Program-made: the position numbers and the translations under genes
The notes under the pieces: model-generated
The model's database searches: none
Told to the model about the DNA's origin: nothing
What the model saw: the letters and a program-made list of their open reading frames with translations, nothing else
In this document: in pieces, positions 1 to 62,320 of the stretch
How positions within the stretch are numbered: the first letter of the stretch is position 1
Layout: each line of letters opens with the position of its first letter
Source: a virus
Lineage: Duplodnaviria; Heunggongvirae; Uroviricota; Caudoviricetes
Virus record (IMG/VR): IMGVR_UViG_3300042691_040811
Length of the DNA stretch: 64,000 bases
Strand: one strand, 5' to 3'

Positions 1-1106
1 TCCCCTAGTCTAGTAGAATCTACCCGAAACCCTCTATACTTTTCAACCATAGGCTTAGGCATGTCCCCCCATCTCAGCATGGCGTTCAAGTCCGAAGCCA
101 TTTTTTCATACTTAGACGGCCCCTTATACCCGGACTTCTCAGCTTGTCTAATGTCCCTTGCCACCGTAGAGTTTAATGTATACTCGTATAAAGCATAGCC
201 AACGTCTGCAAAAGAGAGAACTTTCCCCCTAACTGCGGACATGAACTTATTCCTCAAGGAGTCATAAGAATTTCTATCATTGTCACTTCTGTATAATTCC
301 CCATGGTCTACGTAAGTAGAATTTGTTATACCGAGCAACTTGGCTACTTCCAAGCTAAATTCAGCCAGCTTATTGGATAGCTTATCTGTTTTCCTTTCTA
401 AGTCCTTAAATTGCTTCTCTGTTTTAAGAGTAGATAGGGGAGGGGGAGGCTCTGGCCCCCTATCCCACATAAACTCTTTGAGAGGGGCAGATTTGCCTAT
501 CTTCTTCCCCAGTTTGTCATACAGGGCAATCAGCCTACGCTCTTGCCTATCATACTCCTCTTTATTCCTACTTTTATTAGCCTTCTTCATCCTTTCTGTT
601 ACCCCCCTTTCCGCTTTATCATACCTCTCACTAATAGCCTTATAAACTTCCCATTTCACAGGAACCTTTAGGGGTTTGACCCTTGCAGCCAATCTATCTT
701 CTGATAATTTTTTATTAAAATCTACAGCAACCTGCCTCCATTTATCATATTCAGCTTTCACTGAGAATGCCGAATTAGAGGACAACGAACTCTTTATCCC
801 ATCGGAAACTTCTTTCCAAGTTTGCTCTCTCTTTAATCTAACACCTTCGATGTGTTCTTTAGTGTAATACTTACTGGTGTCAAATAGGGAAAGCTGTTCT
901 ATTTTGTTGCTCAACTTGCCCAGACCTACGGAGGCAGGATCCGGGAACTCAACTAGGCAGGACTCTCCGGGATCAATGCAAGCGGCTGAGCACGCTTTCC
1001 CTTTCTTACACCGGGGTCTTTGTCCCCCAACTGCAAGCACTTTAGCCCGCCTGATTTCTCCTGCCGTGGGCTCATCGAATTCAAAAAATTGGGGTAATCC
1101 TGCCAT
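1..1106 (-). CDS. Cys4-N-terminal paralog family member (C-terminus lies beyond window start)
   Basis: Own translation of minus strand from ATG at 1106: MAGLPQFFEFDEPTAGEIRRAKVLAVGGQRPRCKKGKACSAACIDPGESCLVEFPDPA... then Y-D-K/E-Y-D-R repeats. The + ORFs 340..1176 are its antisense frames. Not in ORF track because no stop inside window. Confidence 0.6.
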   Translation of the reverse strand, partial: MAGLPQFFEFDEPTAGEIRRAKVLAVGGQRPRCKKGKACSAACIDPGESCLVEFPDPASVGLGKLSNKIEQLSLFDTSKYYTKEHIEGVRLKREQTWKEVSDGIKSSLSSNSAFSVKAEYDKWRQVAVDFNKKLSEDRLAARVKPLKVPVKWEVYKAISERYDKAERGVTERMKKANKSRNKEEYDRQERRLIALYDKLGKKIGKSAPLKEFMWDRGPEPPPPLSTLKTEKQFKDLERKTDKLSNKLAEFSLEVAKLLGITNSTYVDHGELYRSDNDRNSYDSLRNKFMSAVRGKVLSFADVGYALYEYTLNSTVARDIRQAEKSGYKGPSKYEKMASDLNAMLRWGDMPKPMVEKYRGFRVDSTRLG

Positions 1107-1576
1107 TGCCGCTATGCGCTACTTAGGCAATTTTACCCAGGAGGTCTACCTTACTAGACAGGAGAGTTGGCCCTAGCACTATCATGCACAGCTTTGATAC
1201 CGATGATAGGGACCATAACGAGTAGATAAGCCAAAAAACAAACAAGGACGATGTTTTCCATCGCCAAATGCACTACTCTAACCATGATAAGAAGGGGGGA
1301 GGCTTAATTAGGCTTACCCCCTTAATGACCGCTAAACCTGTTAAAAATGCCCGAATGTGTTGACACTGGGACATTGCTTAGGTATTATTACTTACCTTGC
1401 TCATGCACAATCATTATGCCTATTAAGGGGGCCACAACAAGTAAAGCCCCCATGAATCCGACAACCATAAGGTTTTGCATCACAAAATGCACCAATTTTA
1501 CAACCATCTTCCCCTAAGAGATTTAACTACAAGGCAAACTTACCCTCTTACTATTGTACAAAAGTTTTGAAATTTT

Positions 1577-2167
1577 TCAAAAATAGAGATAATCTCTCCA
1601 CTCCTCTACTTCCGAGGTGGAAATAGTTACGGAAATACGATTGTAGGGTATCTTAGGTTTGCTAACCAGAGTTGTCCCCGTTGCTCTAATTCTTTCCTCA
1701 AGCATCCCTACTTGAAAGCTATTCCACGAGAATGGCAAGGGGGCGATGTTAGTTGTTTCTTTGGAGAAAATTCTTTTTAGAGCTAAGGCCCACTCCTCTG
1801 GTGTCCTGTTATCTTTTGAATTATTACAGTCCAGGCAACTTGTGGACAAATTGGTCCATGTATCCTCCCCTCCCCGTGATTTGGGTATGATGTGATCCAC
1901 TGTGAGCCTGTCCCCTTTATATCCGCAATATTGGCAAGTGTGTTTATCCCGCTTGAGGATGAGGTTACGGGTAGGCTTGCTAGACAACATGCGTGGCTGA
2001 GGTACCTTAACGTACTCCCTAAGACGAATCGTCCTCTGAGAGATTACATGTGCTTTCCCTTTAAAGACTAATATTGTGGCTCTTTTCCACCCCATCAGGT
2101 GCAAAGGCTCGTATGTAGCATTTAGTAGTAGTACAGTAGACCCTACCTTAACAGGTACTTTATCCAT
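1577..2167 (-). CDS. HNH endonuclease
   Basis: CQYCGYKGDRLTVDHIIPKSRGGEDTWTNLSTSCLDCNNSK = HNH motif (C-x2-C ... DHIIP ... N ... C-x2-C-N). Confidence 0.8.
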   Translation of the reverse strand: MDKVPVKVGSTVLLLNATYEPLHLMGWKRATILVFKGKAHVISQRTIRLREYVKVPQPRMLSSKPTRNLILKRDKHTCQYCGYKGDRLTVDHIIPKSRGGEDTWTNLSTSCLDCNNSKDNRTPEEWALALKRIFSKETTNIAPLPFSWNSFQVGMLEERIRATGTTLVSKPKIPYNRISVTISTSEVEEWRDYLYF

Positions 2168-2252
2168 TTTTCTACAAAGATAAGGGGGTCAGGTTGTACC
2201 TTTCCCCCATGTTTCTATTTTAGCTGTTAGCCCTTTACCCCTAAAATAAAGG

Positions 2253-60973: not shown

Positions 60974-60984
60974 GGTTTTGAGGC

Positions 60985-61100
60985 GGGGTGGCGGCTCAGC
61001 CGCCGTTCCCCAGTATTGTAGCACCTTGCTCTCAGGGTGGCAACCCCTGCGATCTTAACACCGGGGCAACCTTGCTCCCAGGTCTGTCAACCCTAGAGGG
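60985..61100 (-). promoter_or_regulatory. conserved promoter + hairpin + upstream half-unit
   Basis: ggtggcggctcagccgcc, agtattgtagcacc, gggtggcaaccc, then ccggggcaaccttgctcccaggtctgtcaaccc. Confidence 0.6.
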
Positions 61101-61138
61101 TTTAGAGGGGGCAAGCACGGTGCCTGAGTTAAGAGGGG

Positions 61139-62320
61139 TCAACCCTTAGGGTCTTCCCCCCATAGCATAGCGTAGAGCAGTTTAACCCTGTCCTTTTTGG
61201 AAATTTCAACAAAGTTAAAATCTCCACCCATTTCAAACTCATCCATGTCAAGTCTAGTAGCCGGTCTTATTACTCCACCAGAGACCACTCCGTACATCAT
61301 GGTTTCATGCTCCTGAGACCCGAAACCAAACCTTTCATAAGCCTTTCTCCTCTTTTCCCCTCTACGATCTCCATCGTAAGGGTAGACAGCTACGACAGAA
61401 CCTTCCTGCATGTTACCAACAATTTCTCTAAACATTTCCTCCGTAGCCTTAGCAATTTGCATCCCCTTCCTAGTGGACAACCCTACGGGCTTCTCATAAG
61501 ACCCGTCAATTTTAAAGGAAAAGCCCCTACCGTTTTCCTCAAGGACTATGGAAACGTTGTGCCCAGCCACCCTTTTAATGACGGAAATTGTTTCACCATT
61601 GTCTCTATTTAAGAAAGTTCCCCTTAGAGCCCCCTCTTTATCCCCTAAAGCCCTTAAGAAATAATTCCTCGAATTTGAGTCGCCATCCCTATCTTCCCAC
61701 ACTTTCCCCTTCCTTATAATCTCATCGTCCCCAACTCTTGCCCCTAGCCTTCTCTGCAAAGCCATCAATTTTCTTTCCTGTTTGTCATACTCCTGTTTAC
61801 TACCGAAACTCGCAGCTTGCTCCATTCCCTCCATTAAAGTGGAATAAGCAAACCGGTAAGCTGATTTAACCCGTCTAGCCCTTTCCCAAGACACAGGGAC
61901 ATTGACCAGCCCGACTTTCTTATCTAACCCCTCCCTAACCAACATCTTGTTGTAGTCTATTACTTTTTGGCGGCTCCCTTCATACTTATCCTTATCTCCA
62001 AGGCTCAAAGCACTCACAAGGTTTCTTTCGTTCTCCCTACGGAACTTAACCATACTGCGTTTGGCCTCTCGTTCTGACGTATAATTACCAGCTTTAAACA
62101 ACTGTAGTTGCTTAACTTTTTCAGCCTCTATAGAAGCTCTGACTTTGCCTAAGGCTTGGGCAGGGGACACAGGTATCTCTACAAGACAACGATCTGTCCT
62201 GGTGATGCAAGCCGCTGAACAGGGTTTCCCCTTATTGCAGCGGTCTCTTTGACCCCCTACAGCTTTAGCCTGAGCAGCCCTTATTTGCGAATTGGTAGGT
62301 TGTTCCGGCATTTTGAACAA
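61139..62320 (-). CDS. Cys4-N-terminal family protein, short version with C-terminal GDG domain
   Basis: N-term KAVGGQRDRCNKGKPCSAACITRTDRCLVEIPVSPAQALGKV. One E-Y-D-K-Q-E-R repeat. C-term EGSVVAVYPYDGDRRGEKRRKAYERFGF. Confidence 0.7.
   Translation of the reverse strand: MFKMPEQPTNSQIRAAQAKAVGGQRDRCNKGKPCSAACITRTDRCLVEIPVSPAQALGKVRASIEAEKVKQLQLFKAGNYTSEREAKRSMVKFRRENERNLVSALSLGDKDKYEGSRQKVIDYNKMLVREGLDKKVGLVNVPVSWERARRVKSAYRFAYSTLMEGMEQAASFGSKQEYDKQERKLMALQRRLGARVGDDEIIRKGKVWEDRDGDSNSRNYFLRALGDKEGALRGTFLNRDNGETISVIKRVAGHNVSIVLEENGRGFSFKIDGSYEKPVGLSTRKGMQIAKATEEMFREIVGNMQEGSVVAVYPYDGDRRGEKRRKAYERFGFGSQEHETMMYGVVSGGVIRPATRLDMDEFEMGGDFNFVEISKKDRVKLLYAMLWGEDPKG

Follow-up and report, generated by a model that had tools for sequence, protein, structure and literature searches.

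A 64,000-nucleotide (nt) stretch of DNA from a virus of the Caudoviricetes (IMG/VR record IMGVR_UViG_3300042691_040811; the whole stretch is called the window here) encodes a family of paralogous proteins that open with a small module carrying four cysteine residues (the Cys4 module) and continue with one of several unrelated enzymes. From searches of Pfam, NCBIfam and PDB sequences, the module appears to be a domain without prior description. The plan of a conserved N-terminus with swappable cargo, which an earlier note on this DNA had read from its letters, holds for hundreds of phage proteins with kinase, ADP-ribosyltransferase (ART), zincin, HNH-like or GNAT-like cargo. We tentatively propose, at a little under an even chance, that the module is an address tag for virion incorporation and for the co-injection of host-modifying enzymes; this is the best single explanation because of the strictly N-terminal tag, the swappable enzyme, the list of cargo, the apparent restriction to viruses and the place of one member, gp174 of the cultured Synechococcus phage S-CBWM1, within a head gene module. 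The fuller statement, that a virus-exclusive metal-binding domain loads diverse enzymes into cyanophage heads for injection and forms a portable delivery tag, is possible, and we hold it with more reserve.

A six-frame regular-expression search of the whole window found the cysteine motif uninterrupted by stop codons at only seven places, all within minus-strand open reading frames (ORFs), and these are the seven members that the earlier note had listed. The cysteines of all seven members follow the spacing C-x5-C-x3-C-x6-C, as do those of every one of the 130 distinct relatives, which were collected from phage-contig loci and the window by a core pattern with fixed spacing; this replaces the C-x4-C-x3-C-x6-7-C arrangement given earlier. 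Member 1 (1..1106; all members lie on the minus strand), whose C-terminus is cut by the start of the window, has an FFEFD motif at its N-terminus, a helix ending in AVGG and the Cys4 module, followed by one EYDRQE repeat within a helical linker and then by the opening part of a probable R-S-E ART domain (..YEYTLNS..IRQ..YRGFRV). Member 2 (8790..10109) joins the Cys4 module, by way of A-V-D, to a zincin-like HExxH metallopeptidase cargo (HEIGHQ ... ETFAEAF), and member 3 (10315..11490) has a short module, starting 10 residues before the first cysteine (Cys1), then R-K-E and again an HExxH zincin-like cargo; these two are paralogous along their full length (33% identity, E = 2e-46). Members 5 (24297..25787), 6 (27484..29670) and 7 (61139..62320, with a likely ATG at 62311) each place helical repeats between the Cys4 module and a GNAT-like C-terminal domain. 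The repeat, ..EY[ND]KLE..L.., occurs seven times in member 6, three times in member 5 and once each in members 1 and 7, at a spacing of 48-71 residues (48-70 in member 6); the EY[ND]KLE core and the range of one to at least seven copies given previously are borne out, whereas the unit of about 45 residues is too short. Members 1 and 7 align over approximately 200 N-terminal residues (E = 3e-36), after which their cargo differs.

Member 4 is split, as the earlier note had it. Its N-terminal fragment (13505..13831), with the Cys4 module and L-V-E, is separated from its C-terminal fragment (11490..12218), with a helical linker and a GNAT-like 'GDG' domain, by an IS605-family TnpB/OrfB transposase gene on the same strand (12300..13445), which matches OrfB_IS605 (1e-27), Cas12f1-like_TNB (9e-25) and HTH_OrfB_IS605 (2e-15) in Pfam and phrog_506 (2e-125). 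The insertion is fixed in the population, because independent ENA contigs, drawn from three or more samples, carry the same disrupted arrangement; this phage is also represented in the ENA samples ERZ27247984 and ERZ27247975. Seven is a minimum for the family. At the window end (63613..64000) are the C-terminal 129 of the 361 residues of an eighth member with protein-kinase-like cargo, and an ENA contig (L128) that is 100% identical to window positions 61534-64000 and reaches 1.9 kb past the 3' end places the Cys4 module of member 8 approximately 700 nt beyond the window, with a ninth member, also with kinase cargo, coming next.

The module has a core of approximately 45 residues, [KR][KR]-C-x-K-G-K-S-C-[GS]-A-T-C-I-x5-C-[LVI]-[VL]-[ED]-[LF]-[PG]-x2-[VI]-[SQ]-x2-L-x-K-V, and the conserved stretch runs from the two basic residues before Cys1 to approximately 20 residues past the fourth cysteine (Cys4), ending in L.K[VA]. 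Many members start only 3-6 residues before Cys1; the helix ending in AVGG is optional, as is an aromatic F-x-D/N-F motif at the N-terminus, which is found mostly in the HNH-like group. We considered whether '..AVGG' could mark a double-glycine bacteriocin leader and rejected this, as the spacing of conserved residues does not fit, the helix is absent in many members and the cargo consists of large enzymes. Recent gene conversion of the N-terminal module was likewise ruled out by a third-codon identity of 0.3-0.55 at conserved residues among the window copies. Synonymous sites are close to saturation when the seven window copies are compared, and we therefore attribute the conservation of the module to selection on the peptide and not to DNA exchange. 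The module contains no CxxC pairs and matches no described zinc ribbon or knuckle in Pfam, NCBIfam or PDB.

A search with a profile of the module found it in 40 IMG/VR loci and 78 metagenome-contig loci, most of which look freshwater or estuarine, going by contig names alone. An exhaustive HMMER profile search of 1.84 billion representative sequences gave 589 clusters at 50% identity (E <= 1e-3), and in the best 150 of these 589 the module starts within the first 47 residues; it is also N-terminal in nearly all of the 130 phage-contig proteins. A word-indexed protein search returned 8 matches for the N-terminal module and 3 for the GDG domain. A search of 185,579 prokaryotic species genomes did not find the module, no PHROG match covered it, and among 50,697 GenBank phage records it was present only in S-CBWM1. 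The family thus appears to be restricted to viruses, and the module, which the earlier note could place in no characterized family, is not a housekeeping zinc ribbon. Tandem arrays of 3-6 members with differing cargo were observed on single contigs (L022, L053, L023 and L047); L053 has five consecutive family genes (2436-11386), and these effector islands are comparable with the window run 13831-8790. The sole clearly internal placement that we saw is in a 1975-residue protein of locus L039 (9653-15580), with the Cys4 module at approximately residue 117 and an LRAT/NlpC-P60-type domain (Pfam E = 3e-11).

Behind this constant N-terminus the enzymes vary. Protein kinases make up one cluster of 48 of the 130 members, proteins of 450-620 residues with an HNH-like D/E-x-E-H motif account for 34 and window-type repeat proteins for 15, with HExxH peptidases, ARTs (one above the Pfam cut-off) and others in smaller groups. 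Among the 109 members scanned, Pfam matches were to Pkinase (12), ART families (7 and 3) and HNH (1), and no Pfam family was common to all; in the Pfam scans of members and relatives each protein shows one recognizable cargo domain.

The kinase assignment was supported by both motifs and profiles. Member 8 matches Pfam APH, Pkinase and ABC1, members 8 and 9 have the motifs HNDMH.GN..(I/V)D ... FVDLG (an HxD..N catalytic loop and a DFG-type motif), and a relative on L053 scores 33.2 bits for Pkinase against a cut-off of 31.7 bits; on these grounds members 8 and 9 and 48 relatives are assigned to the protein kinase superfamily. For the zincin-like cargo of members 2 and 3, with HEIGHQ or HELGHQ and ETFAEAF, the Pfam match to ATLF (E = 0.009 in member 2, 16 bits) falls under the 27.4-bit cut-off, and the HExxH domain shows similarity to the C-terminal extension of phrog_241 ('head morphogenesis', E = 1.5e-6). 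Member 1 is cut after YRG; its full-length ortholog P0019 (62% identity) gave no Pfam match and shows YRG, SWSSS and DEHE by eye, homologs on L070 have weak Pfam ART matches, and a relative on L122 scores 31.5 bits for ADPrib_exo_Tox against a cut-off of 23.4 bits, the best ART E value in the census being 1e-13. The cargo of member 1 is therefore regarded as a probable R-S-E ART. The GDG domain agrees with the alpha/beta fold of GNAT proteins. It matched no Pfam acetyltransferase and no PDB sequence, a Foldseek comparison of its model with viral structures gave nothing significant, and in the alignment its loop reads Y-x3-G-x-L-x2-R, not the canonical acetyl-CoA motif Q/R-x-x-G-x-G/A (beta4-alpha3). 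We therefore describe it as a divergent GNAT-like domain whose sequence does not indicate cofactor binding. Both cargo types named in the earlier note, the GDG domain and the HExxH domain, are thus present, and its list was incomplete, lacking the probable ART of member 1 and the kinases at and past the window end.

Enzymes of these kinds would be toxic if they acted at the wrong site. The module might instead be a redox-sensitive or Fe-S/zinc switch, or an oligomerization knot, that holds them inactive until a cue arrives, and four invariant cysteines at an unusual spacing, with no CxxC pairs, would suit such a role. However, there is no precedent for a switch of this kind serving five unrelated catalytic folds, and the strict N-terminal position and the linkers of variable length are more in keeping with a tag than with allosteric control; we consider this the least probable of the explanations.

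The only cultured relative, S-CBWM1, has five family members: gp106, gp113, gp161, gp162 and gp174. The HNH-like gp106 is encoded two genes after the large terminase (TerL), and gp162 is a kinase. Two further kinases, gp113 (record positions 70464-71324) and gp161 (117887-118702), have annotated starts downstream of an in-frame Cys4 module (MSKRCTKGKSCGATCI... and MGKNCSKGKSCGSACV... respectively), and the deposited proteins lack the N-terminal module because their start codons were annotated too far downstream. The fifth member, gp174, is encoded past the Mu-type portal (gp169) and the head maturation protease (gp170) and directly before the major capsid gene, and was annotated by the depositors as a virion structural protein. 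This label probably rests on proteomics, because homology would not suggest that name. The protease matches phrog_976 (head maturation protease, E = 4e-67); it gave no Pfam or PDB sequence match and has no detectable link to gp21 of phage T4. The capsid protein of the relatives is of the lambda-E type and the portal of the Mu type. The capsid and protease genes to which the earlier note had looked are therefore present, together with the portal, in S-CBWM1, whereas annotation of the window proteins found no head genes in the 64 kb. Approximately 45 related loci encode a TerL with 48-60% identity to the S-CBWM1 protein and, 1.5-3 kb downstream of it, a gp106-type member; because this arrangement is kept we assign the family to one phage clade. 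Searches of the other loci by tblastn with the S-CBWM1 portal, protease and capsid found no head genes beside family members, TerL being the only one.

The presence of a head maturation protease bears on the original reading of the N-terminus, namely that its approximately 60 residues are a propeptide or capsid-targeting leader that a T4-type prohead protease removes after (L/A)-V-E. In support of this, E or D follows [LVI][VL] past Cys4 in 89% of the 130 members, and the T4 internal proteins pair a conserved targeting sequence with diverse cargo (PMC3012670). The supposedly invariant (L/A)-V-E is, however, L-V-E in five of the seven window members, with A-V-D in member 2 and R-K-E in member 3, and over the 130 members the third residue after Cys4 is E in 62%, D in 27% and G in 8%, an acid being absent in approximately 10% of the family. 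Moreover, gp174, the sole member with a virion annotation, is among those with G, reading C-L-V-G-L-P-E after Cys4 with no acidic residue at that position. Conservation continues for approximately 20 residues beyond the presumed site ([LF]-[PG]-x2-[VI]-[SQ]-x2-L-x-K-V..L), which places it inside the module; the pattern [LIVM][VLIA][ED] occurs so often in head proteins that it has no diagnostic value; and the protease has no discernible tie to T4 gp21 in a phage whose portal is Mu-type. These data do not support cleavage after L-V-E, and we regard a removable leader as improbable.

A second element shared by the window and S-CBWM1 is the promoter-like sequence GGGTAAAAY. It occurs seven times in the window, on the coding strand each time; two copies lie inside tRNA-Ser genes, and each of the other five precedes a family member or a gene run containing members. 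These five, all on the minus strand, are GGGTAAAAT at 1130..1138, 25810..25818 and 29697..29705, which is 32, 31 and 35 nt upstream of the ATG of members 1, 5 and 6 respectively, and GGGTAAAAC at 62335..62343, 32 nt upstream of the ATG of member 7, and at 19220..19228, 34 nt upstream of the subtilase gene that heads the run to members 4, 3 and 2. In S-CBWM1 there are 26 forward copies and 1 reverse copy. The genes that the element precedes include those for the portal, protease, sheath, tape measure, tail fibre and gp106, whereas the clusters for replication and nucleotide metabolism lack it, and in 1.13 Mb of related loci the strand bias is 249:3. In that same 1.13 Mb the element precedes 21 of 108 family members and 175 of 999 other ORFs, which rules it out as a family-specific signal. 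It is best read as a putative general promoter-like element of the S-CBWM1-like clade, and this is compatible with co-expression of the family with structural genes, though no proof of it. The element stands approximately 30-45 nt upstream of start codons with no obvious -35 partner, recalling T4-type late promoters, and S-CBWM1 encodes two sigma factors. Hairpins in the 5' untranslated region between element and start codon were not significant (z -0.65 to -1.5). In addition, we noted a repeat of approximately 35 nt (ctacagatgtgaaagatt..cactgtccca) directly upstream of three GGGTAAAAC elements in S-CBWM1 (approximately 26627-26661, 65852-65886 and 126603-126637, before NMNAT, PhoH and gp168), which may be a regulatory site.

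We propose the following mechanism for the family. Each protein would be built from an optional F-x-D/N-F motif and AVGG helix, the basic core of approximately 45 residues, a helical linker of 0-7 repeats and one catalytic cargo, which may be a protein kinase, an R-S-E ART, an HExxH zincin, an HNH-like nuclease or a divergent GNAT-like domain. The four cysteines would coordinate a metal ion, probably zinc, to give a small basic knot, and this knot would be the common address tag that directs all the enzymes to a single destination late in infection. The destination would most likely be the DNA-filled head, so that the enzymes would be carried by the virion and reach the next host along with the DNA, a role that the capsid-targeting sequence has for Alt and the internal proteins of T4; the proposal does not involve removal of the tag by a prohead protease. 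We infer metal binding, the tag function, packaging and ejection of the family proteins.

Several observations weigh against delivery in the virion. Of the five S-CBWM1 members, gp174 alone has a structural annotation, and the window members lie among tRNA, NAD-salvage, ligase and methylase genes and not among structural genes. The AF2 model of the module, with a pLDDT of 61, is too poor to bear on metal binding. As family members are not enriched for it, GGGTAAAAY as a general promoter gives no proof of late timing. Finally, a basic Cys4 knot could equally bind nucleic acid inside the infected cell, and this leads to the main rival explanation, in which the module, as a zinc knot that binds nucleic acid or targets the nucleoid, would tether unpackaged enzymes within the infected cell; their anchor would be DNA, RNA or a host protein on the DNA, for example RNA polymerase. 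The charge of the module suits this role, with a mean net value of +9.3 over approximately 68 residues and K/R flanking Cys1, and the most widely conserved type, gp106, has an HNH-like motif and a place near TerL in approximately 45 loci, a typical position for DNA handling; the missing virion annotations and the non-structural neighbours in the window point the same way. Against it, gp174 is annotated as a virion structural protein within the head module, and the module has neither similarity to known DNA-binding zinc fingers nor CxxC pairs. We consider a tether unlikely on balance, yet a serious competitor, and it overlaps with packaging in that a DNA-bound protein could be co-packaged. An address tag for the virion remains the explanation that we favour.

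The surroundings of the family in the window were also characterized. All long ORFs of the window are on the minus strand and the GC skew is negative throughout. The 14 tRNA genes are scattered on the coding (minus) strand between 7075 and 47790, as against more than 30 in S-CBWM1, and further minus-strand genes encode a tyrosyl-tRNA synthetase (38018-39172), NAMPT with a phosphoribosyl pyrophosphate (PRPP)-synthetase-like protein as an NAD+ salvage pair (2253-4774), a NADAR-domain protein (21587-22138) and a complete OprB-family porin with an SLH domain (5463-6977); a DNA ligase, a DNA methylase and a phage tail lysozyme are also encoded. A megablast search with 24 kb of the window against GenBank phages and PLSDB plasmids gave no close DNA matches. 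The window covers a non-structural portion of the large genome of a lytic phage, one that is only distantly related to S-CBWM1. Porins of the OprB/SLH type are typical of cyanobacterial outer membranes, and the phage copy is likely to be a host-derived auxiliary gene that hints at the host. Combinations of NAD+ salvage and NADAR genes have been linked with countermeasures against defences that deplete NAD+ or act by ADP-ribosylation, and here NAMPT, PRPP-synthetase-like and NADAR genes occur in a phage with a probable ART effector of its own. The single-strand gene run from 19228 down to 8790 comprises a subtilase S8 gene with a fervidolysin-like prodomain (16846-19194, minus strand), ORF183, a papain-family C1 peptidase (15050-15958, minus strand), a C45/AAT-like protein (13844-14728, minus strand) and members 4, 3 and 2, and three unrelated proteases adjoining two zincin-like effectors suggest a proteolytic host-attack island.

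If the tag does lead to the virion, it would be a second, unrelated solution to the capsid-targeting task that T4 has solved, and hundreds of proteins from freshwater and estuarine cyanophages, in which early host takeover is almost unknown, would become candidates for injected effectors. These would amount to an undescribed cyanophage arsenal of host-takeover and counter-defence effectors. A module of approximately 45 residues that carries unrelated folds of 250-700 residues could also be of use in packaging foreign proteins. Should the tag act within the cell instead, it would still single out a coherent group of kinases, ARTs and peptidases, found only in viruses and sharing a target location, that can be studied together, and a cultured system is available in S-CBWM1 on Synechococcus sp. 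CBW1002.

Parts of this plan have parallels in known systems. In T4, Alt is an ADP-ribosyltransferase, like the cargo of some family members, and the capsid-targeting sequence has approximately 10 residues and no cysteines and is cut by gp21 after L/I-x-E. The present module has no sequence similarity to it and differs as a Cys4 module of approximately 45-70 residues in phages whose relatives have a Mu-type portal and a lambda-E-type capsid. The likeness lies in the principle, as IPI, IPII, IPIII and Alt of T4 bear the same short conserved N-terminal element on unrelated, fast-evolving, host-directed proteins (PMC3012670). MuF or SPP1 gp7 toxins follow the same plan of a head-associated carrier with variable C-terminal enzymes, to which the phrog_241 match of members 2 and 3 may be added; in contrast, the carrier here is a small Cys4 module, and neither the window members nor the 109 and 25 relatives scanned have a Phage_Mu_F match. 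Polyvalent proteins, as surveyed by Iyer et al. (2017, PMC5512222), combine zincin-like metallopeptidase, ART, protein kinase, GNAT and nuclease domains and were proposed to enter with the DNA. Their effector repertoire is thus that of the family, whereas each giant polypeptide there has 2-15 effector domains and the present proteins have one cargo and a shared tag and are often in tandem; a text search of that survey found no mention of a cysteine or zinc module. Bacterial polymorphic toxins share the N-terminal trafficking region, repeat-rich middle, swappable C-terminal enzyme and tandem paralogs, but the present family occurs in lytic phages only, no immunity genes were seen and the module is unlike known secretion-system domains. 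The ejection proteins of giant phages of the phiKZ/SPN3US type have their own processing motifs and are not known to contain a cysteine module. As two reports describe them, these inner-body proteins resemble the family in forming paralogous sets, are internal to the head and delivered to the host, and differ in being processed by the prohead protease (PMC5694885, PMC10052503). The principle thus has precedents in the internal proteins of T4 and in polyvalent proteins, as well as in MuF and polymorphic toxins, and the module itself appears to be new, being absent from Pfam, NCBIfam and PDB sequences.

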